DNA of 64,000 nucleotides from an uncultured Acidobacteriota bacterium (GTDB lineage: Bacteria; Acidobacteriota; JAAYUB01). The stretch spans positions 160,386 to 224,385 of the forward strand of contig CAYPNP010000003.1 of NCBI GenBank assembly GCA_964412195.1, in the 5' to 3' direction. Under the pieces are notes generated by a model. It was not told the origin of the DNA. It saw only the letters and a program-made list of their open reading frames with translations, and did not search any database. Position numbers and translations under genes: made by a program. Shown here piece after piece: positions 1 through 56,785 of the stretch. How positions within the stretch are numbered: position 1 is the stretch's first letter; each line of letters starts with the position of its first letter.

Positions 1-702
1 TCTGTATGATACCGCCGCCACCGGCACAGGGTAGGTACCCCGACCGGCCGGGAGGGGCGCGAAGGATCCGCCGCTGGGATGATGGGAGTCCGCCGGTCAA
101 CTCCGTCTGATTCCGGTCAGCGTCTCGATCTCCTTCAGGCGGGGGAGGAGATGTTTGCCAGGGACGTGGATGGAATTGTGTCTCGCTCCCCCCGATCCCG
201 GCAGCTGGTCCCGCGCGCCCTGCCTGTCGGGGTACCTCCCGCCTGCCGGTGCTGACGCCGTGCTCGCTGAGAGGGCCTGTGCTCGTCATCATGCTCGACG
301 GATGACCGGTGACGGCTCGTGTTCGTCATCGTCATCGTAATCGTGCTCGTGATCGTACTCATGCTCGGCGATGCTCCCTCACCGCGAAGGCACCAGGTCT
401 GCCAAGCAGAATTCAGCACGGATGAACACGGATGCCCAATCCGATGCAGCCGGATCCATTCAATCGTGATTATGTCTGGCAAGAACATGTCCGACTGCCG
501 GTCCGAACCGGGATGAATAGACCGGGTCCGTGTGAATCGGTCCGTTATCCGTGTAGATCCGTGTTGAATCTCTGGTCATCCTTCACTGGAGCCATGTCAT
601 GCCAGGTTTCCCGTGGGTTGGCCTGACGGGAGTTTCCTCCGTCCGGCACGACCGACAGCGCCGGTTTTGGTACAATGATGCCAGTGATTTCATCCCGCGA
701 GG

Positions 703-5530: not shown

Positions 5531-6057
5531 CCTGGGTGCGTCCTTCCTGGTTGCTTCCGCCGGAGAGTTGTCCGGCTCGTCCCACCGGATCCTCCCCGGA
5601 TCGGCGTTCCCGGACAAGATAATGCATTCCCACCCCGGCGCCAACGGAAAAACAAAAGGCCGGGCCTCCTCCGCCGGAAATCGTTGTCTCCGCGGAGCCG
5701 GTGTCGGGATCAGACGGAGTTGTCCGGCCCGCTCCCGCCCTCGAGGCGACTCCAGCCTTGCGCCCCTCCCGGCCGGTCGGGGTACCTCCCGTGTGCCGGG
5801 GGCGGCGTTGTCGCCTTCGACGGAAATGGCGCCCGCGTCCGGGATTGACTCTGCGATCTCTACGTCTCTGCGTGAATATACTTCGGGGCTCGAAGCCGGG
5901 GGCTTGGGACTCGGCAGACGTTGACAAACAGTAGTGGGGTCGAGACCCGAGCACCGAATCCCGAGACCCGATTACGAGCACGATAACGATTACGAGCACG
6001 AGCACGAGGAGGATCGGTGGATTTCTTTTTTCGAGGGAGCTGGACGGGGAAAAAAAT

Positions 6058-11219: not shown

Positions 11220-11460
11220 TGCGGGCCGCGGCGTGCCCGGTAATTGATGCCCAATGACCGATGACCGGTGAACGATGACCGGCGACGGGCCATGCCGACT
11301 GCGAAATGGCATGCCTGCTTCATCGATATCGGAGTCGGTTTTCGCAGTCGATTCCAAGATCGGTTCCTGACGGCGATACCGATGCCTCCGGTCCCGAGCC
11401 CCCAGACCCGAGCCCCCAGATCCGATGTCCGACATCCGAATTCCGATGTCCGCACCGGTT
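11220..11460. repeat. intergenic heptamer arrays (CCGGTGA/CCGATGA family and CCGATGT/CCGAAGT family)
   Basis: ccaatgaccgatgaccggtgaacgatgaccggcgacggg and cccagatccgatgtccgacatccgaattccgatgtccg. Confidence 0.7.
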
Positions 11461-11505
11461 GCGGCGGAGCGGGGAATCCGCTACCATGGGGGCGGGAGCG
11501 GCACG

Positions 11506-12789
11506 ATGGAACACGACGAGATCCTGCACTGGCTGACAGAGACCGGCGAAGCGGCGCTGGAGCAGCTCTGGCGCCGGGCCGACGAAGTCCGGCGCCGGCA
11601 CGTCGGCGACGCGGTCCACCTGCGCGGGCTGGTGGAGTTCTCCAACCACTGCGCCCGGCAGTGCGGGTACTGCGGCATCCGGGCCGGCAACACCCGGCTG
11701 GCGCGCTACCGGATGAGCGCCGACGAGATCCTGGAGTGCGCCCGGCTGGCCGCCCGGCTGGGCTACGGCACGGTCGTCCTGCAGTCCGGCGAGGACCCCG
11801 GCACCCGGCGCGCCTGGATGGCGGACGTGGTCCGGCGGATCCGCGCGGAAACGGGGCTGGCGGTGACGCTCAGCCTGGGTGAGCGCAGCGACGCCGACCT
11901 GCGGGCGTGGCGCGAGGCCGGCGCCGGCCGGTACCTCCTGCGGTTCGAGACCTCCAACCCGGTTCTCTTCCGGAAGATCCACCCGCCCCGGCGCGGCCGC
12001 GGGAGCGACCGGATCGCCCTGCTGCGTCGGTTGCGAGGCCTCGGCTACGAGGTCGGCAGCGGGGCCATGATCGGTATCCCCGGCCAGACGTACGGTGACC
12101 TCGCCCGGGACCTCGAGCTGTTCAGGGAGCTGGACCTGGACATGATCGGAGTCGGGCCGTTCCTCCCTCATCCTGCTACGCCTCTGGGTCAACCAGAGGA
12201 CGCGGGGACGGGGGGACGGGGAGACGGGGGGACGAGCCGGATCGAACATCGAACATCGAACATTGAACATCGAACATCGAACTCAATCCGCGATCCGCAC
12301 TCCGCAAACCGGGAACTCACCACAAAGGCACAAAGAACACAAAGACAAGATTGGGATTCCAATTCGAAATCCGCGATCCGCAATCCGAGATCCGATGTCC
12401 GAGATCCGATGTCCGAAGATCGCACTCCGCATTCCGCACTCCGCACTCCGCATGATTCCGAACAGGTTCCCAACTCGGAATTGATGACCTACAAGGTGGT
12501 GGCGCTGGCCCGGCTGATCTGTCCGGACGCCAACATCCCCAGCACCACGGCGCTGGCCACGGTCAACCGGGAGTCCGGACGCGAGCTGGGTCTGCAGCGG
12601 GGCGCCAATGTCGTCATGCCCAACCTGACGCCGCCGCGCTACCGGGCCGGTTACGAAATCTACCCGGCCAAGGCCTGCCTCCAGGAAACGCCGGAGCAAT
12701 GCCACGGCTGCCTGCTGGCGCGCATCGCGTCCATCGGCCGGACCGTGGGCGAGGGGCCGGGGGAGTCTCCCCGATTCAGGAAGCGGTGA
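11506..12789 (+). CDS. radical SAM protein of the HydE/BioB/ThiH family carrying an in-frame insertion of about 97 codons of heptamer-repeat origin (function may be disrupted)
   Basis: EFSNHCARQCGYCGIR CX3CX2C radical SAM motif; HydE-like C-terminus ICPDANIPSTTALAT...GANVVMPNLTP; start MEHDEIL chosen because the first 27 codons of the ORF lie in repeat DNA. Confidence 0.65.
   Translation: MEHDEILHWLTETGEAALEQLWRRADEVRRRHVGDAVHLRGLVEFSNHCARQCGYCGIRAGNTRLARYRMSADEILECARLAARLGYGTVVLQSGEDPGTRRAWMADVVRRIRAETGLAVTLSLGERSDADLRAWREAGAGRYLLRFETSNPVLFRKIHPPRRGRGSDRIALLRRLRGLGYEVGSGAMIGIPGQTYGDLARDLELFRELDLDMIGVGPFLPHPATPLGQPEDAGTGGRGDGGTSRIEHRTSNIEHRTSNSIRDPHSANRELTTKAQRTQRQDWDSNSKSAIRNPRSDVRDPMSEDRTPHSALRTPHDSEQVPNSELMTYKVVALARLICPDANIPSTTALATVNRESGRELGLQRGANVVMPNLTPPRYRAGYEIYPAKACLQETPEQCHGCLLARIASIGRTVGEGPGESPRFRKR
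12190..12480. repeat. intragenic repeat module: CGAACAT, CCGAGAT/CCGATGT, CACAAAG and CACTCCG heptamer arrays inserted in frame in the radical SAM gene
   Basis: atcgaacatcgaacatcgaacattgaacatcgaacatcgaac translates as IEHRTSNIEHRTSN; ccgagatccgatgtccgagatccgatgtccga; cgcactccgcattccgcactccgcactccgca. Confidence 0.8.
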
Positions 12790-12794
12790 GACAC

Positions 12795-12945
12795 TGGATC
12801 GTCTCTCTCGTGTGAATTGATTCAATTGCGGATTGCGGATTGCGAATTGAACGGATTGCGGATTTCGGATTGCGGATTGAAACCTAGGCTTGTCTTTGTG
12901 TCCTTTGTGCCTTCGTGGTGAGTTCCCGGCTTGCGGCTTGAGGTT
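12795..12945. repeat. GCGGATT heptamer array plus CTTTGTG array, inverted relative to the intragenic module
   Basis: ttgcggattgcggattgcgaattgaacggattgcggatttcggattgcggatt; 12893-12930 is the reverse complement of 12311-12350. Confidence 0.7.
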
Positions 12946-23539: not shown

Positions 23540-23930
23540 GGTGAGGGGTGACGGGTGACGGGTGACCGATAACCGGTGCCGTCGCTGTTCGTGCTCGTAA
23601 TCGTAATCGAAACAATGAATTACACACAGAATCGCAGATTCCGCGGCGTTTTCATGAGCAATGCGTTGCCACAAGCAAGCGGGAAGTACCCTGCCGGTCG
23701 GGGTACCTCCATCCTGCCGGTTTTGAGGTCGTGCCCGTTGAGCGGGATCGTTCTGATGGTCGTGTACGCAGCTGGATCTCGGGTCTCGGGACTCGGGGCT
23801 TGGAATCAGGGCTCCGGATCCAGCCCCAAGCCCCCGGTCTCCTGTACTGAGCTCCGAGCCCCGAGCCCCGAGCCTCCAGCCTCGAACCCCGAGTCCCCAA
23901 ACCCGAGCCTCGTGGTAGAATACGCCGGCC
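23540..23930. repeat. composite intergenic repeat region: CCGGTGA array, CGTAATC array, TCGGGGTACCTCC core and CCCGAGC array
   Basis: gtgacgggtgacgggtgaccgataaccggtg; gtgctcgtaatcgtaatcg; 23698-23710 tcggggtacctcc; ccgagccccgagccccgagcc. Confidence 0.75.
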
Positions 23931-25892: not shown

Positions 25893-28714
<2,822 letters not shown>

Positions 28715-28900
28715 TTGCGAATTGCGAATTGCGAATTGAGTCCGTGCTTACTCGAAAATAGAAACTTCCGATCGTACTCGTCGATCGTAATCGTGCTCGT
28801 AATCGTAATCGTAATCGCAACAATCAATTACACGCAGAGACGCAGAGTCCGCAGAGACAATCCCTAACGCGGATGAACACGGATTCCCGCCGATCCGGCC
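28715..28900. repeat. composite repeat: GCGAATT array, CGTAATC array, CGCAGAG array
   Basis: ttgcgaattgcgaattgcgaattg; cgtgctcgtaatcgtaatcgtaatcg; cacgcagagacgcagagtccgcagagac; homologous to the module at 23580-23650. Confidence 0.75.
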
Positions 28901-29057: not shown

Positions 29058-29273
29058 ATGAAAAGAGAATTCAGCGTGATCATCGAAAGGGATCGCAAGG
29101 GATTGTTCATCGCATCCGTTCCAGAATTGAAAGGATGTTTCACTCAAGCCAAATCATTGGATACATTGATGAAAAGGGTGCGGGAGGCCATCGAATTGTG
29201 CCTTGAAGTGGAAGGCGAGCCAATCACCGCGGTCGATTTCATCGGCGTTCAGCGGGTGGCCATCGGTTCATGA
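29058..29273 (+). CDS. HicB-family antitoxin (UPF0150)
   Basis: 71 aa; FSVIIERDRKGLFIASVPELKGCFTQAKSLDTLMKRVREAIELCLE HicB/UPF0150 pattern; low local GC. Confidence 0.7.
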   Translation: MKREFSVIIERDRKGLFIASVPELKGCFTQAKSLDTLMKRVREAIELCLEVEGEPITAVDFIGVQRVAIGS

Positions 29274-29494
29274 CCAGGATGCCCCGAATCACCGGCAAGA
29301 CCCTGGTGCGGGCGCTCGGAAAAGCCGGTTTCCTGGTGATCCGGACGAAGGGTAGCCACCATTACCTCAGTCATCCGGACGGCCGTTGGGTTGTGGTGCC
29401 TGTCCACACCCGGGAGAATTTAGGCCCCGGTTTGATCTCCAAAATAATCCACATCTGCGACTTGTCTATGGGGGAGTTACGCAAACTTCTGTAG
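29270..29494 (+). CDS. HicA-family mRNA interferase toxin (YcfA-like)
   Basis: 74 aa; ITGKTLVRALGKAGFLVIRTKGSHHYLSHPDGRWVVVPVH HicA signature; 4-nt overlap with hicB. Confidence 0.75.
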   Translation: MTRMPRITGKTLVRALGKAGFLVIRTKGSHHYLSHPDGRWVVVPVHTRENLGPGLISKIIHICDLSMGELRKLL

Positions 29495-36132: not shown

Positions 36133-36339
36133 ATGTCCAAGGTTTGTGATATCTGCGGCAAAGGCCCCATGTTCGGGCACAACGTCAGCCACGCCCACAA
36201 CCTGACCAAGCGGCGCTTCAATCCGAACCTGCACAAGATGCGCGCCCAGGTCGGCGGCGACGTGAAGCGGATCCAGGTCTGCACCCGCTGCCTGCGCTCG
36301 GGCAAGGTGCAGAAACCGGTCGTCTCCCCCAAGCCGTAA
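36133..36339 (+). CDS. rpmB: 50S ribosomal protein L28
   Basis: [33 protein letters not shown] canonical L28 N-terminus; RBS GGAGG. Confidence 0.85.
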
Positions 36340-36480
36340 ACCATTCACCACAAAGACACAAAGAGCACAAAGAAATCCTTTCTGAGGTAAGCAGCTCAGA
36401 AAGGATTTGTGTTTTATTCAACGAGTGCATCTCGGCAGCTGCCTGCCTTTGTGTCCTTTGGGCCTTTGTGGTGAATCCTA
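36340..36480. terminator. rpmB terminator hairpin flanked by inverted CACAAAG heptamer arrays
   Basis: aaatcctttctgaggtaagcagctcagaaaggattt hairpin followed by tgtgtttt; caccacaaagacacaaagagcacaaag upstream and its inverse ctttgtgtcctttgggcctttgtggtg downstream. Confidence 0.65.
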
Positions 36481-40235: not shown

Positions 40236-40559
40236 ATGCTGGACGCCAAGACCAAGAAGTATCTCCGCGGAAAGGCCAACGGCCTGTCGACGGCGGTGAC
40301 CGTGGGCAAGGAGGGCGTCACGGAGTCGGTCGCCGCCGAAATCGAGCGGACGGCCGAGACCGCGGAGCTGGTGAAAATCCGGCTCCTGCCGAGCGCGCCC
40401 GTGGACCGGAAGGAAGCCGAGCAGGCCCTGTCCGGGATGCTCCGCGGCGAGTTCGTCGGCGGCATCGGCCGGGTGCTCGTTTACTTCCTCCCGGGCAAGA
40501 ACCCCTCGCGCTACTTCCCGGCCGGCGGCGTGGCCGGCGGACGCACAGAGCATGATTGA
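40236..40559 (+). CDS. YhbY-family RNA-binding protein (CRM domain)
   Basis: KKYLRGKANGLSTAVTVGKEGVTESV...ETAELVKIRL YhbY pattern; GKxG motif. Confidence 0.7.
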   Translation: MLDAKTKKYLRGKANGLSTAVTVGKEGVTESVAAEIERTAETAELVKIRLLPSAPVDRKEAEQALSGMLRGEFVGGIGRVLVYFLPGKNPSRYFPAGGVAGGRTEHD

Positions 40560-41310
40560 CCAGCCCCGCCCCTGGTACATCAAGAAGCGTTTTTACGCCG
40601 GCGTCATCCTGCTGGTGCTGGCTCTGCTGCTGGCTTTCAATTACCACACCGTAAAGCAAACCCTCCGTGACACCGGGAAAAACGTGGTCGCCTACGCCGA
40701 GCACGGGAACCCGTGGCTCGGCGGCTTGATATTGGGCTTGGTGGGTGTTGGGGACTCATCGTTCCTCTCCCTCCCGGAGGGGAACGATTTTTTAATTGTC
40801 TTTTACTCCATCCACCGCCCCGAGATGATGCCCTATTTCGTGCTGGTCAGCGCCCTCGGGTCGCTGATCGGATCGCTCATGCTGTTCTACCTGGGACGCA
40901 AGGGGGGCGGCGCATTCCTCCAGAAGCGCTTCTCCCCGGAGAGCGCGGAGCGCATCCAGACCTGGTTCCACAAGTACGGCATCTGGGCCATCCTGGTCCC
41001 CTGCATCGTGCCGCCGCCCATGCCGTTCAAGCTGTTCGTGCTCTCGGCGGGGCTGCTGCACTTCCGCTATTCCCGCTTCATCCTGGCCACCACCATCGGC
41101 CGGATCATCCGCTACGGCATCTGGGGGGTGCTGGCGGTGCTCTTCAAGGATGACATCAAGTATTTCATGCAGCACCACCTGCTGAAGGTCGGCATCGTCA
41201 TCCTGGCCGTGCTGGCGCTGGGCTGCCTGGGTGGCTACTTTTACGCCCTGCGCAAGCGGCGCAGCCAGCGCGCCGGGGCCGCCGCCCCGACTCCCGCCGC
41301 GACGGAATAA
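40552..41310 (+). CDS. DedA/YqaA (VTT-domain) family membrane protein
   Basis: VTT-like core F/YxxxR...G motifs; five or six transmembrane helices; overlaps the yhbY end by 8 nt. Confidence 0.65.
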   Translation: MIDQPRPWYIKKRFYAGVILLVLALLLAFNYHTVKQTLRDTGKNVVAYAEHGNPWLGGLILGLVGVGDSSFLSLPEGNDFLIVFYSIHRPEMMPYFVLVSALGSLIGSLMLFYLGRKGGGAFLQKRFSPESAERIQTWFHKYGIWAILVPCIVPPPMPFKLFVLSAGLLHFRYSRFILATTIGRIIRYGIWGVLAVLFKDDIKYFMQHHLLKVGIVILAVLALGCLGGYFYALRKRRSQRAGAAAPTPAATE

Positions 41311-41317
41311 TCTCAAT

Positions 41318-41490
41318 CAATTGCGGATTGCGGATTGCGGATTGAGGATTGAACCGCAAACCGCGCAAAGGATGCAAAGCGGAATTCAACGCTGATCCAC
41401 GCAGATTGATTATGATCTGATATGATCATTTAACAGGTTTGGATCATAAAGATCATAAAATATCCGCGTGAATCTGCGTTGAATGAGATC
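41318..41490 (+). mobile_element. composite MITE-like dispersed element, copy 1: GCGGATT array, CAAAG-rich segment, about 100-bp AT-rich core with terminal inverted repeats
   Basis: Core ttcaacgctgatccacgcagattgattatgat...ggatcataaagatcataaaatatccgcgtgaatctgcgttgaat is homologous over its whole length to 55441-55545 (second copy, opposite orientation). Confidence 0.75.
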
Positions 41491-41570: not shown

Positions 41571-42548
41571 TCAGGGGACGCAGCCGACCAGGGACAGGTT
41601 GGCGGTGGAGTTGGTGCCGCCGCCCAGGTAGCAGAGGGTGAAATTTCCGTAACCGGAATTGGGCCGGTAGAGGTACCAATCCTCCCCTGTCCCGGAACCG
41701 GCGCTCAGCCGGGAATAATCGCCAATGATCTGTTTCGACGTCGAATCGACGGTGAGATAGGCTCCCATCGCTTCCCTGGTGACCCCTGCGTTTCCTGAAT
41801 TGCACGAGGCGGTGACCCTGGAGTTTGTCAGAGTGACGACGGCAGTAGAATCCGCCGCGTCAGCCTCCATGTAGATCCCCGCCGTCGTGGTGCTGGTATC
41901 GCTCGGGGCCCACTGCTGGGTTGCCACGATCTGGGTGTTGTATAGTTTCAGGTCGACCACGCCGACGGAGAAGATTCCCGCTCCGAAAGAAACACTCTGT
42001 TCCATCCGGATGGAGCAGTCCCGCAGCTCGGAAAAGTAGCAGCCGTCGTTGTAGATCGCCGCGGAAAAATTCACCCCGCCGTGCCCATGGTTGAGTTGGA
42101 GGCTCTCGATAGCGCCGCACCAGGTTCCGCTCAGCACCACGAGGGCGCCATAGGGAGGTGCTGCCTCCCCTCCGGTACGATAGAAGACTGTGTTGGTTGG
42201 ACCGTACCCGCGCAGGGTGGTATAGCTGGGTAGCGTGATGGGCCGGGTCAGCGTGTACGAGCCGGGCGCCACGAGGATCACGAAGCGGTTGACGTTTGTT
42301 GGAAACTGGGTGGCCACCCAGTCCGCGGCGTCGGCGGGATCGGTGAAATCGCCGCCCTGCTTCGCTACCACAACGATGCTCTCCAGGTTGAATTCGGAGG
42401 CGTCGAGATTGCCGGCCAGGATGTTGGCCAGGCAGACGCTGTCGGCCGCGTTCACCGCCCGGTCGGCGTTGACGTCGGCCCGGTTGCCGGCCGCGGCCGG
42501 GCCGGCGCACAGCATGATCACCGCGATCAGGGTCATAGCGTTTTTCAT
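41571..42548 (-). CDS. secreted right-handed beta-helix-like protein with N-terminal dockerin-like Ca-binding repeat, paralog 1
   Basis: Signal peptide; ADVNADRAVNAADSVCLANILAGNLD dockerin/EF-hand-like repeat; Thr/Ser/Gly/Asn-rich beta-helix-like body. Confidence 0.55.
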   Translation of the reverse strand: MKNAMTLIAVIMLCAGPAAAGNRADVNADRAVNAADSVCLANILAGNLDASEFNLESIVVVAKQGGDFTDPADAADWVATQFPTNVNRFVILVAPGSYTLTRPITLPSYTTLRGYGPTNTVFYRTGGEAAPPYGALVVLSGTWCGAIESLQLNHGHGGVNFSAAIYNDGCYFSELRDCSIRMEQSVSFGAGIFSVGVVDLKLYNTQIVATQQWAPSDTSTTTAGIYMEADAADSTAVVTLTNSRVTASCNSGNAGVTREAMGAYLTVDSTSKQIIGDYSRLSAGSGTGEDWYLYRPNSGYGNFTLCYLGGGTNSTANLSLVGCVP

Positions 42549-50792: not shown

Positions 50793-51448
50793 TGCGCAGG
50801 AAGACTCTTACCCTATGGCGGACGGTGTGGCTGGCGGCCCTGCTGGCGGCGGGCGGTGGCGCGGCGGGCGCGGCCGGGCTGTCGCTGCGGGACCGGGTCG
50901 TGGCCGACGTGGCGGGGGAGCCCGTCACCCTCCGCCAGGTGCTCATCCTGGCCAGCCTGGAAGCCGGCCGGAAGGTCGACCCGTCGGAAGGGGGGCTCGT
51001 GGCGGCCGCGGTCCAGCGGGAGATCACCCAGGTCATCATCATGCGGGACATCGCCCGGAATCCGTCCTACGAGGAGGAGAAACCCGACGAGGCCGCGATG
51101 CGGCAAGCCCTCGAGCAGAAGTGCGGCGGGCCGGAGGCATTGCGCCGGCTGCAGGAGGAGCTCCAGCTGAAAGACGAGACGCTCGAGAGCTTCCTGCAGC
51201 GGCAGGCCCTGGCGGTCGCCTTTGTCCGGCTGCATTTCAATCCGTTCGTCTATGTGTCCGAGGAGGAGGCCCGGAAATACTATGCGGAGGTGTTCCTGCC
51301 CCGCCTCGGCGCCGGCGCCGCGCCGCCGGACTTTGAGAGCGTGCAGGCGAAAATCGTGGAGATCCTGCAGCAGCGCAAGATCAACGCCGAGTTCGACCAG
51401 TGGCTGGAGCGGCAGAGGAAGGAACTTCGAGTCAAGATCATTGAATGA
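50792..51448 (+). CDS. periplasmic protein downstream of bamA (SurA-N/Skp-like chaperone?)
   Basis: ATGA overlap with the bamA stop; signal peptide; helical; position equivalent to skp in Omp85 operons. Confidence 0.45.
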   Translation: MRRKTLTLWRTVWLAALLAAGGGAAGAAGLSLRDRVVADVAGEPVTLRQVLILASLEAGRKVDPSEGGLVAAAVQREITQVIIMRDIARNPSYEEEKPDEAAMRQALEQKCGGPEALRRLQEELQLKDETLESFLQRQALAVAFVRLHFNPFVYVSEEEARKYYAEVFLPRLGAGAAPPDFESVQAKIVEILQQRKINAEFDQWLERQRKELRVKIIE

Positions 51449-51560
51449 TTGCGAATTTCGAATTGCGAATTGCGGATTGTGGATTGCGGATTGCGGATTT
51501 TAAATTTCAAATCCTCAAACTCTTTTTCTCTGAATCCACCCCGTCCACCCGTCCACCCCG
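51449..51560. repeat. GCGAATT/GCGGATT heptamer array plus CCACCCG array
   Basis: tgcgaatttcgaattgcgaattgcggattgtggattgcggattgcggatt; ccaccccgtccacccgtccaccccgtccactctgtccacccggtcc. Confidence 0.75.
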
Positions 51561-54924: not shown

Positions 54925-55398
54925 TCAACGGGCGGCCAGGATCCGGGCCAGGTCCTTTTCCAGTGACTGCTTCGGGGCCTCCACGATGCGGCCGATCTCC
55001 CGGCCGGACTGGAAGAAGAGGAATGTGGGCACCCGCTCGATGCCCATGCCCGCCGTGAGCCCGTCGGGATCCTGCTTGGAACGGTCGACGGCGATCCAGT
55101 GCACGCGGGACTCCGGCACGCGCAGGCGGTCCAGGAGCTTCATCAGCTTCGGGACCTGCTCCAGGCTGTCGTCGCACCAGGAGCCGAACACGGCGTAGAC
55201 CTCCAGCTCGGCGGGCAGGGCGGGGAAATCCTTCAGCGCCGCCTCTTCGGGCGCGTAGGCGTCGAAGCGCTCCTGGTAGGGCGGGAGCTGGGCCAAGATC
55301 TCCGCGCGGGGCAGCTCGCCCTCCAGCAGCGGCAGATCCGTCGCCAGGACCGCCCCCCCCAGCATCATCAAGGCCAACAACAAAGCAGATATTCTCAT
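54925..55398 (-). CDS. secreted thioredoxin-fold protein with monothiol WCDDS motif
   Basis: Signal peptide; VFGSWCDDS in place of WCxxC; start MRISALLL with RBS GGAGG. Confidence 0.55.
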   Translation of the reverse strand: MRISALLLALMMLGGAVLATDLPLLEGELPRAEILAQLPPYQERFDAYAPEEAALKDFPALPAELEVYAVFGSWCDDSLEQVPKLMKLLDRLRVPESRVHWIAVDRSKQDPDGLTAGMGIERVPTFLFFQSGREIGRIVEAPKQSLEKDLARILAAR

Positions 55399-55439
55399 TT
55401 GTTCTCCTCTCCGTGTCCTCCGTGCCTCCGTGGCCCGAT

Positions 55440-55630
55440 CCATTCAACGCAGATCCACGCTGATCTATTATGATTAATTAGGATCATTTAAAAGGTCTGG
55501 ATCATAAATGATCTTAAAAAGTCTGCGTCCATCTGCGTCGAATTCCCCTTTGCGTCCTTCGCGCCTTTGCGGTTCGATTCGAAATTCGCAATTCGCAATC
55601 CGCAATCCGCAATCCGCAATCCGCAATCCC
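55440..55630 (-). mobile_element. composite MITE-like dispersed element, copy 2 (inverted relative to copy 1)
   Basis: ttcaacgcagatccacgctgatctattatgattaattaggatcatttaaaaggtctggatcataaatgatcttaaaaagtctgcgtccatctgcgtcgaat followed by cgcaatccgcaatccgcaatccgcaatcc. Confidence 0.75.
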
Positions 55631-55633
55631 CAA

Positions 55634-56785
55634 TCAGAGGGAGCGCTCTAAAATCTCTGCCAATTCAGCCGGGGTCAGCGCCACCGGATTGCCCTGCATG
55701 CTGCTGGCCACCCGGGCGCGGTCCACCAGCGTGGGGATGTCGGTGGCGGTGACTCCGTAGGAGCGCAGGGGCGGGATCCGCAGGTCCCGGCACAGGCCGT
55801 CCACCCAGGCGATGGCCTTGGCGGCGCCGGGCGCCTGGCCGGTCAGGAGCCGGCCGAGCGAATCCATCCGGCGCAAGGCGTCGCTGCCGGGATCCCGCTC
55901 CCGCAGCGCCCGGTGGTTGGCTTCCAGCACCCGCGGCAGCAGCCGGGCGCACGCGGCGCCGTGGGGCGCCGGAAACATGCCGCCGAGGGGCGCCGCCAGG
56001 CCGTGCACCGCCCCCAGCCGGGCGTTGGCCAGGGCCATCCCGCCCTCGAGGCTCGCCAGGGAGAGGTCCTCGCGGGCGGCCGCGTCGTAACCGTCGAGGC
56101 AGGCGCGGCGCAGGCTGCGGGACACCCGGGGGATGCCGTCGCGGCACAGCCCGTCGACGAGCGGATTGGGGCGGTTGCAGAGGAACGGCTCCACCAGTTG
56201 AGTCAGGGCGTCTAGGCCGGTGCTGGCGGTGATCTCCGGGGGCAGGCCGTAGGTCAGTTCGGGGTCCACCAGGGCCACCCGGGGCAGCATCAGCGGGCTG
56301 CGCAGGCTGACCTTGACTTTGTGCTCCGGCGAGGCAAGCACGGCGTTGCGGGTGGCTTCCGATCCGGTGCCAGCGGTGGTCGGGACGGCAATCAGGGGAA
56401 CGGATGGCTTGACCAGCGGCCGGCCCTGGCCGACGACTTCGAGATACTCGAGCGGATCGCCGCCGTTGGCCAGCAGGGCCGCGACCGCTTTGGCCGTGTC
56501 CAGCGCGCTGCCGCCGCCGAAGCCGATGACCAGGTCGGTCCCTTCCGCGTCGGCCTGCGCCAGCGCCGTCCGGACCGTGTTCACCGACGGCTCGCCGGCG
56601 GACGAGAACACGGCGGCGGGCAGGCCGGCCTCCCGGAGCAGGGCCAGGAGCCGGCCGGCCCGGTCCGGCGAGGCGCCCGTGACCACCAGCGGCTTCCGCC
56701 CGAGGGAAGCGGCCAGCGGCCCGATTTCCTTCAAAGAGCCGGCCCCGAACAGGATCCGTTGCGCGGTGGCGAATTCGAATGGCAT
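55634..56785 (-). CDS. iron-containing (group III) alcohol dehydrogenase
   Basis: GGGSALDTAK NAD-binding motif; conserved His metal ligands; 383 aa. Confidence 0.85.
   Translation of the reverse strand: MPFEFATAQRILFGAGSLKEIGPLAASLGRKPLVVTGASPDRAGRLLALLREAGLPAAVFSSAGEPSVNTVRTALAQADAEGTDLVIGFGGGSALDTAKAVAALLANGGDPLEYLEVVGQGRPLVKPSVPLIAVPTTAGTGSEATRNAVLASPEHKVKVSLRSPLMLPRVALVDPELTYGLPPEITASTGLDALTQLVEPFLCNRPNPLVDGLCRDGIPRVSRSLRRACLDGYDAAAREDLSLASLEGGMALANARLGAVHGLAAPLGGMFPAPHGAACARLLPRVLEANHRALRERDPGSDALRRMDSLGRLLTGQAPGAAKAIAWVDGLCRDLRIPPLRSYGVTATDIPTLVDRARVASSMQGNPVALTPAELAEILERSL

Follow-up and report, generated by a model that had tools for sequence, protein, structure and literature searches.

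A 64,000-nt stretch of contig CAYPNP010000003.1 (assembly GCA_964412195.1), here called the window, carries two copies, c1 and c2, of a short AT-rich repeat. With about as much confidence as doubt, we read them as copies of a dispersed, non-coding, AT-rich palindromic repeat of ~105 bp that resembles a MITE, or miniature inverted-repeat transposable element. Both belong to a family whose members are dispersed among intergenic sites and share one architecture of short, exactly phased boxes. At orthologous sites in related lineages, the repeat is present, absent, replaced, or inverted, and its sequence is free of RNA-type constraint. The family is of a known kind, that of small palindromic intergenic repeats, but its architecture is unusual: the direct boxes are phased and eight in number, the loop flips, the spacers are scrambled, and the element is nested inside ordered tandem arrays.

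Two copies in the window

The core of c1 occupies positions 41385–41483 and that of c2 positions 55443–55542, and each runs TTCAAC...GTTGAA. A preliminary description of this DNA had reported two homologous AT-rich stretches, and both exist as described. The low GC content that it gave the cores also stands (36.4% in c1, 37.0% in c2), but its figure of 68% for the background does not; the 64-kb window has 65.4%. Similarly, the 12-nt terminal inverted repeats that it assigned to the core understate the symmetry: the palindrome extends over the entire element, with ~43 nt in each arm. As a single strand, each core is predicted to fold into one long imperfect hairpin with a stem of ~43 bp. The folding energies as single-stranded DNA are −29 to −31 kcal/mol for c1 (z = −7 to −9) and −18 to −19 kcal/mol for c2 (z ~ −4). 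The terminal motif ACGCWGATCCACGCWGAT is found in the window solely at the four ends of c1 and c2, where 0.16 occurrences are expected and 0 of 100 shuffles reach four. A profile hidden Markov model of the AT-rich subfamily likewise matches only c1 and c2 in the window.

The two copies have different neighbors. c1 sits where two genes converge, a VTT/DedA gene (dedA; 40552–41310, +) and a gene for a 325-aa protein without a Pfam match (41571–42548, −). c2 lies between the stop codon of an Fe-alcohol dehydrogenase gene (adh; 55634–56785, −) and the start of a thioredoxin-like gene (trx; 54925–55398, −). None of the genes flanking c1 and c2 is duplicated, which argues against a segmental duplication, the explanation that the description had named as a way to be wrong. 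Its statement that the copies carry no open reading frame (ORF) holds in that none is common to c1 and c2, although short mechanical ORFs of ≤63 aa do cross the cores. The nearest relatives of the window proteins are proteins from Acidobacteriota metagenome-assembled genomes (MAGs), and the organism is uncultured.

Phased boxes in the core

Each arm of ~43 nt consists of four boxes: TTCAACGCNGAT, ACGCNGAT, TTATGAT, and T.ATGATC. That is, an arm reads ACGCNGAT twice and then TTATGAT twice, on an exact 10-nt period with 2–3 variable bases between boxes, and a loop of 14–20 nt separates the arms. Across 20 aligned copies there are 49 invariant columns, and GAT (left arm) or ATC (right arm) recurs every 10 columns; in the left arm, the invariant GAT occupies alignment columns 16–18, 26–28, 36–38, and 46–48. 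The termini ATTCAACGC.GAT and ATC.GCGTTGAAT are invariant in all 20 copies. The loop and the 2–3-nt spacers vary freely across the same copies, and the spacers look random. In some copies (L083, L088, L094), ACGCNGAT and TTATGAT boxes can stand in for each other, and c2 carries the variant boxes TTCGAC, CAGAC, TTAAGAT, and ATCCTAA.

What is being conserved in these arms? Pairing is seen at mirrored variable columns in 48 of 140 cases, fewer than the 59.9 of shuffles, and only ~5 of 2,000 shuffles pair as rarely. This lack of compensatory pairing at variable positions puts selection on the sequence of the boxes, not on a helix. A box sequence selected on a period of one helical turn suggests in turn that a multimeric protein recognizes the element as double-stranded DNA. 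Full palindromy is avoided; long perfect palindromes are unstable in bacteria.

A dispersed family and a wider superfamily

A search with a 25-base left-arm pattern matched 29 metagenome contigs. Counting c1 and c2 apart, ~25 copies in metagenome contigs lie in unrelated intergenic contexts; complete copies with the same architecture, 94–106 nt long, number ~22. Copies with conserved inverted termini thus exist beyond the window, and the preliminary description had named their absence as grounds for its refutation. At least 13 of the contigs come from one assembly at 2–4x coverage, so a genome carries many copies. All copies lie between genes, which may be convergent, tandem, or divergent. The flanks are unrelated among copies, save for a palindromic extension, (G)GAA before the element and TTC(C) after it. 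Pairwise identity between copies is 63%–88%, with a mean of 75%.

A second scan covered a species-representative collection, one genome per species and without the window genome, for both 12-nt termini 60–90 nt apart, and returned 69 loci. About half of these were a coding coincidence and were discarded: they are a 108-nt in-frame stretch, reading FNADGGEVEQCGNGARCF, of a conserved proteobacterial gene that we take to be dapF. The remaining loci are true palindromes, often several per genome, from MAGs labeled Gemmatimonadaceae, Anaerolineae, Nitrospirae, Geobacter, Acidiferrales, Saprospiraceae, Lysobacter, Burkholderiales, Solibacteraceae, and Pseudactinotalea. In most of them, a second ACGCNGAT box follows 9–10 nt after the first, a feature that the search pattern did not demand. 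Palindromes that begin with the tandem ACGCNGAT boxes occur in MAGs labeled as at least eight phyla, and they are multi-copy in MAGs with the first eight of the labels listed here. Some bin labels may be wrong. For example, the “Methanosarcinales” contig L004 (3.3 kb) carries a window-type hexamer array, yet its GC content is only 55%. Several other superfamily matches sit on contigs of 0.1–3.4 Mb. The Pseudactinotalea MAG (L011, L022, L054, L061) has a GC-rich palindrome of tandem TTCAACGCTGATCCGGCA units that has the 12-nt terminus in common but is otherwise different in architecture.

Orthologous sites and the orientation of the copies

The preliminary description placed the two copies in opposite orientations, and this is true of only part of the element. 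The array-side flanks, each a heptamer array plus a CAAAG segment, align over 65 nt at ~85% identity only when c2 is reverse-complemented, a match that 0 of 1,000 shuffles equal; the distal flanks of c1 and c2 have no homology. By contrast, the cores align better co-oriented, with 83 of 101 positions identical, than they do when one of them is inverted (74 of 105), and for the 14-nt loop the shared orientation is clear. The cores can be co-oriented despite their inverted flanks because the loop is inverted in place among orthologs of the adh-trx site. In L108, whose Trx is 85% identical, the adh-trx spacer, read in the direction of the genes, contains the array, the CAAAG segment, the core, and a CACGGAG array, with the loop as in c2. 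In L106 (Trx 86% identical), the structure is like that of L108 with the loop reverse-complemented, so that it matches the c1 loop at 13 of 14 positions. In L109 and L110 (Trx 72% identical), the spacer has heptamer and hexamer arrays and no core. Judged from these orthologs, the loop is flipped in place between close lineages.

The dedA spacer is similarly variable. In L102 and L103 (DedA 85% identical), it holds a palindrome of a CACGGAT type that has only the right terminus (ATCCGCGTG.ATCTGCGTTGAAT) in common with c1. In L101 (83% identity, in a partial match to 38% of the query), it holds a heptamer array and a short ...GCGGAA, and no core. Hence, insertion polymorphism is seen at both spacers, with no precise empty site that can be aligned.

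Within the core, boxes and spacers have changed to different degrees. Among the adh-trx orthologs, identity is 83%–86% at fourfold-degenerate sites of trx, 76%–93% in the spacer flanks, and 87%–93% in the boxes. The boxes thus change at about the silent-site rate, as would be expected of copies that decay neutrally once inserted rather than of copies constrained by the host. Between-box spacers are identical at only 6 of 20 positions when L106 is compared with c2 or L108, against 14 of 20 between c2 and L108. Judging by these comparisons, the core interior has probably been either overwritten from paralogous copies or mutated far faster than silent sites. Since the ends are inverted repeats, overwriting could occur in both orientations. 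A similar case, assessed by eye, is the L083/L077 pair at a corrinoid-protein gene, where the position is kept and the interior differs.

Tandem arrays as a separate layer

Both window copies adjoin short-period tandem arrays, and the preliminary description treated array, CAAAG segment, and core as one composite element. This does not extend to the family. Most AT-type cores lack an adjoining GCGGATT array, so the composite is a juxtaposition rather than the repeating unit, and the arrays are a separate, lineage-specific feature. The window contains 33 arrays with a period of 6–10 and at least three copies each, or 5.2 per 10 kb. The corresponding density is 6.1 at the metagenome loci with AT-type cores, 0–2.5 at loci from other phyla, and 0.2 at control loci, so that the window has ~25 times the control density. 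Arrays of many sequence types fill the intergenic spacers, in a semi-conserved order of modules: heptamer, hexamer, an 8–9-nt array of the CACAAAG or ACGCAGAG type, and the core with its 10-nt period.

A model for the repeat

How might such an element spread and change? In the reading that we favor, each copy would be two transposon-like ends set back to back, with boxes one helical turn apart and 14–20 nt between the arms. The working unit would most likely be double-stranded DNA, with the eight phased boxes bound by a multimeric protein. This protein would most simply be a transposase or recombinase encoded elsewhere in the genome, which would place copies in many intergenic spacers by transposition. 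Resident copies could later be overwritten or flipped, via ectopic conversion or hairpin template switching, because their ends are inverted repeats and the boxes are common to all copies; this would produce the inverted loop and scrambled spacers seen at orthologous sites. c1 probably arose by copying of a c2-type block of CAAAG segment plus core beside a pre-existing heptamer array.

The preliminary description had proposed either a non-autonomous mobile element or a conserved structured RNA. The first proposal agrees with the dispersion, the lack of coding capacity, the conserved termini, and the presence, absence, or replacement of the core at orthologous sites; mobility itself is something we infer, and neither of the two marks of it that the description suggested seeking, a target-site duplication and a cognate transposase, was detected in the window or the fetched loci.

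Several observations weigh against the mobile reading. First, no target-site duplication rises above shuffled flanks at offsets of 0–6 and lengths of 2–9. The sole regularity of the flanks, AA before and TT after the element (AATT), is itself palindromic and therefore uninformative, since such a target would look no different from an extension of the terminal inverted repeat. Second, there is no transposase, integrase, or RAYT among the ~50 window genes, and none of the fetched loci has ends that enclose a transposase-type gene. Third, no two copies are near-identical (88% at most), so there is no sign of a recent burst. Fourth, viral contigs and plasmids gave no match. Fifth, copies hold their position across ~15% silent divergence, and three assemblies of the window strain, which occurs in the Logan assemblies of SRR12489243 and SRR12489244, have the same sequence at c1 and c2; no loop flip is seen within the population that these three sample.

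Two leads on the mechanism were tried and dropped. The ~800-nt spacing of neighboring copies hinted at an enclosed RAYT-like gene, but the enclosed genes are ordinary housekeeping genes that, from their translations by eye, look like ThiD, a corrinoid protein, SDR, and PyrF. GGAA was considered as a one-sided target motif, being present only on the left in 9 copies and only on the right in 11; L084 has it on both sides, so the exclusivity is not significant. The core has no polarity relative to the GGAA side (mean score difference 0.5, standard deviation 9.4).

Alternative explanations

What else could account for the repeat? One alternative, which we consider unlikely, is that the boxes are binding sites for a nucleoid-associated, partition-like, or regulatory protein and are kept for use by the host. 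Invariant boxes, free spacers, and exact 10-nt phasing on both arms would be expected of such a platform, as would AT-rich islands in a 65% GC genome, and the failure to find a target-site duplication or a transposase is consistent with it. So is the conserved position in the spacer of c2, L108, and L106, and the occurrence of L083/L077 copies on both sides of an orthologous corrinoid-protein gene. However, the flanking genes have no functional theme and occur in every orientation, and close relatives either lack the core at orthologous sites or have a different subfamily in its place. Moreover, orthologous boxes change at about the silent-site rate, c2 has several box mutations, and no candidate binding protein was found.

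A second alternative dispenses with a dedicated enzyme. Slippage, hairpin template switching, and ectopic conversion between spacers that share arrays could have built up a mosaic like that of BIME elements. The very dense arrays of period 6–10 (5.2–6.1 per 10 kb, against 0.2 at control loci), the recurrence of modules in semi-conserved order, the flank that c1 and c2 share along with the core, and the inverted loop and scrambled spacers at an orthologous site are all compatible with this. We nevertheless find it distinctly unlikely: the core superfamily also occurs in other phyla whose loci lack dense arrays, the flanks of most AT-type copies have no homology that could prime conversion, and slippage alone fails to explain the strict conservation of the boxes.

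A third alternative, to which we give slightly less weight still, is an element that acts at the RNA level, a hairpin in the 3′ untranslated region of the upstream gene that serves as a terminator or as a site of mRNA stabilization or processing. Both window copies lie 3′ of a stop codon, after a sense-oriented array, and as RNA the hairpins are predicted to have high stability (−32 to −60 kcal/mol). In c2, TTCGAC allows a G-T wobble on the sense strand. Roles of this kind have been proposed for REP sequences and many MITEs. The preliminary description had suggested folding and covariance analysis; the first gave the stable hairpin, and the second gave no covariation beyond that of shuffles. 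Pairing reaches 97.7% of the cells in the alignment, yet 22 of the 30 pairs are invariant, and the covariation score of 0.029 is on a par with the 0.027 of shuffles. Mirrored variable positions avoid pairing, falling below chance. Among the 10 copies whose neighbors are co-directional, the sense strand folds more stably in 5, exactly as expected by chance, and copies also occur between divergent gene starts (L083, L085). In the window, Rfam gave no match at gathering score; a permissive scan of c1 gave only a chance snoRNA (E = 0.16). Neither copy has a terminator-like site, there is no T-run terminator consensus, and the promoter consensus gave a single weak promoter-like match, on the minus strand at c1. 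The structured RNA that the preliminary description offered as its second possibility finds no support in these results.

Finally, the repeat could consist of stray integron attC sites. These too are imperfect palindromes, with a size range that includes ~100 nt, as for the element, and the ends ATTCAAC and GTTGAAT fit the outer heptamers RYYYAAC and GTTRRRY (the R''/R' consensus) in 19 of 20 copies, a fit partly imposed by the search pattern; L083 also has two copies 730 nt apart around one ORF. We reject attC identity, as very improbable, on architecture. An attC site has inverted L''/L' boxes, an unpaired central spacer, and extrahelical bases by which its arms become asymmetric. Here, the second box repeats the first in direct orientation and is no inverted L box, and the two arms are symmetric, share the 10-nt phasing, and have no extrahelical base (GC.GAT pairs with ATC.GC). 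The neighbors are housekeeping genes that are kept in synteny in relatives, copies take every orientation relative to genes, and there is neither a cassette array nor, in the window, an integrase.

Relation to known repeats and functional implications

Prokaryotic MITEs such as Correia/NEMIS, ERIC, Nezha, and Chunjie have been reviewed (PMC10969869). Like them, the element is short (<500 bp), non-coding, AT-rich, intergenic, and dispersed, with inverted termini, a stem-loop predicted to be stable, and differences in presence and absence between relatives. It differs from them in lacking a detectable target-site duplication, in having no parent insertion sequence in the window or the fetched loci, in that nearly the whole element is an inverted repeat, and in that its arm is made of four direct boxes in 10-nt phase rather than a simple 4–30-bp terminal inverted repeat. 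It is not Chunjie, which at 178–235 bp differs in size (PMC10969869).

The element also resembles REP, REPIN, and BIME elements, which are associated with RAYT or TIRYT tyrosine transposases (PMC3733652, PMC3116915). The likeness lies in the inverted doublet of ~100 nt, the long hairpin, the lack of a target-site duplication, the extragenic location, mostly downstream of genes, and the mosaic with short motifs. The REP/REPIN unit is an imperfect palindrome of 20–40 nt tagged with GTAG or CGTC (PMC3733652), whereas the arms here are direct repeats rather than small palindromes, with no GTAG or CGTC tag and no GGGGWSAS motif. REP/REPIN identity was therefore rejected, since the arms contain no self-complementary unit and lack the GTAG tag. 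A TIRYT group specific to Acidobacteria, with long terminal inverted repeats on its flanks, has been described (PMC3733652); no Y1 transposase (RAYT/TIRYT) was found in the 64-kb window. Rickettsia palindromic elements, mentioned in the same paper (PMC3733652), offer a further likeness, in that repeat DNA of one lineage is tolerated in frame in a coding gene, here the array block of a HydE-like ORF; the in-frame insert in the window consists of tandem arrays, however, and not of the palindromic core. Searches of the literature with the terminal sequence gave only unrelated primers, and searches for the SRA runs and for MITEs of Acidobacteria found no description.

Two further comparisons concern the boxes and the loop. 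The ends of Mu, Tn7, Tn402/Tn5053, and IS21 carry several phased transposase-binding boxes of 19–22 bp; these transposons begin TG...CA, make 5-bp duplications, and carry genes. The element is like them in having direct box repeats at each end, ends that are inverted relative to one another, and a terminal box that is the best conserved. It is unlike them in having boxes of 7–8 bp on a 10-bp period and nothing between the ends. Small hairpin-associated inversions are also known from chloroplast non-coding DNA, where the loop flips between close lineages and the stem stays. That is a different kind of genome, and the flip described here is accompanied by scrambled spacers in the arms.

What are the functional implications? 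The intergenic regions of bacteria are shaped by small palindromic repeats, which also disrupt assembly from short reads and can alter how genes are expressed; only for a minority of such families is the recognizing protein known. The unusually legible recognition code and the terminal double box in at least eight labeled phyla make the search for a partner protein concrete and testable. The family also marks a little-studied, uncultured, Acidobacteriota-like lineage whose spacers are almost wholly ordered short-period arrays. A bolder proposal, which we advance as speculation with a small chance of being right, is that the eight helically phased boxes, with the ACGCNGAT terminal double box, are the platform of an uncharacterized DNA-binding or recombination protein present in at least eight labeled phyla. 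The boxes would then form either the ends of an undescribed transposon family whose insertion duplicates no target or an architectural site of the chromosome. Within the window lineage, they would be nested in ordered “Russian-doll” arrays of 7-, 6-, 8/9-, and 10-nt periods that turn over much faster than silent sites and that lie in frame in a HydE-like gene.

Feature coordinates and other repeats of the window

Table 1. Parts of c1 and c2 and related elements in the window, in order of position (a dot marks features given without a strand)
Feature	Position	Strand	Remarks
Longer, GC-richer palindrome with CACGGAT boxes (ATTCAGCACGGATGAACACGGAT ... ATCCGTGTAGATCCGTGTTGAAT)	410–569	.	Found with a relaxed pattern; preceded by a hexamer array and a CAAAG-like segment
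Half element (AACGCGGATGAACACGGAT)	28865–28884	+	After heptamer, hexamer, and ACGCAGAG arrays; no right arm
Heptamer array (ATTGCGG) x4.6	41320–41351	+	Tandem Repeats Finder (TRF); 9 nt past the dedA stop codon, sense orientation; also in L101 and L102/L103
CAAAG segment of c1 (GAACCGCAAACCGCGCAAAGGATGCAAAGCGGAA)	41352–41384	+	Ends in GGAA adjoining the core; together with the array, ~85% identical over 65 nt to 55543–55606 reverse-complemented
c1 left arm: TTCAACGCTGAT, ACGCAGAT, TTATGAT, ATATGATC	41385–41427	.	Four boxes, 10-nt period
c1 loop: ATTTAACAGGTTTG	41428–41441	.	13/14 identical to the L106 loop, 12/14 to the c2 loop (window + strand)
c1 right arm, mirror boxes: GATCATAA x2, ATCCGCGT, ATCTGCGTTGAA	41442–41483	.	
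8-nt array (CACGGAGG type, read on the minus strand)	55409–55432	-	TRF; flanked by the c2 core on one side and by the trx-like gene's ribosome-binding site and start on the other; kept in L106 and L108
c2 arm nearest the trx-like gene: TTCAACGCAGAT, ACGCTGAT, TTATGAT, TTAGGATC	55443–55485	.	
c2 loop: ATTTAAAAGGTCTG (+ strand)	55486–55499	.	Relative to the array, inverted with respect to c1 and the ortholog L106
c2 arm nearest the array: GTCTGCGT, ATCTGCGTCGAA, GATCTTAA	55500–55542	.	Partly decayed; 3 mismatches
CAAAG segment of c2	55543–55582	-	Minus-strand reading
Heptamer array (GCGGATT) x7.6	55583–55635	-	TRF; directly past the Fe-alcohol dehydrogenase stop codon, sense orientation; also in L106, L108, L109, and L110

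The two subfamilies of palindrome, AT-type and CACGGAT-type, can be combined at one site. In L080 (340–520), the arms of a CACGGAT-type palindrome enclose an AT-type core, and in L079 (137–382) both subfamilies stand in tandem, followed by CTTTGTG and hexamer arrays. Directly after the half palindrome of the window comes an AT-richer stretch with a hicB/hicA toxin-antitoxin pair (29058–29273 and 29270–29494), which may have displaced the other arm.

The heptamer arrays have a consistent position. The window has five (ATTGCGR)n arrays (12825–12879, 28714–28738, 41320–41351, 51448–51499, and 55583–55635 on the minus strand). All five are in sense orientation and start no more than ~35 nt past an upstream stop codon (0–9 nt in four). 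Sense arrays of this type close to stop codons likewise occur in L101, L102, L106, L109, and L110. Arrays are also often paired in inverted orientation around a short center, as at 2327–2364/2453–2491, 21111–21151/21187–21227, 38716–38753/38839–38885, and 12241–12452.

The HydE/BioB-like radical-SAM ORF at 11425–12789 stays open through ~270 nt of octamer and heptamer arrays (~12198–12470), which translate as repeats of the IEHRTSN and IRNP types. Array-encoded inserts of other lengths occupy the same loop in close relatives (403–444 aa), in a distant homologue of 448 aa, and in a Sumerlaeota homologue; typical HydE proteins (~350 aa) have no such insert. Part of this block has an inverted partner past the stop codon (12879–12943).

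Three other repeats were noted. A dispersed module, TCACCACAAAG.CACAAAGA.CACAAAGA, occurs at 36345–36373 and 36441–36474 and also at 12317–12345 and 12888–12921, with 93% identity between sites; together with an inverted partner, it brackets a terminator-like hairpin just past an ORF (36134–36340) whose translation, judged by eye, resembles ribosomal protein L28. A 108-nt inverted repeat (8–115 and 5705–5812, 5.6 kb apart, 78% complementary) is unrelated to the AT-rich core. The same is true of a 58-nt GC-rich repeat (CCCTGCC.GTCGGGGTACCTCC...) at 218–275, 5768–5825, and 23689–23746 (66%–83% identity).

The repeats appear to fragment public assemblies of the window lineage. Short-read contigs L104–L108, L111, and L112, which come from several samples, stop ~100–210 nt upstream of the trx-like gene, inside the repeat-filled spacer, and for the two Logan contigs of the window strain, the heptamer array's edge is where the contig starts.

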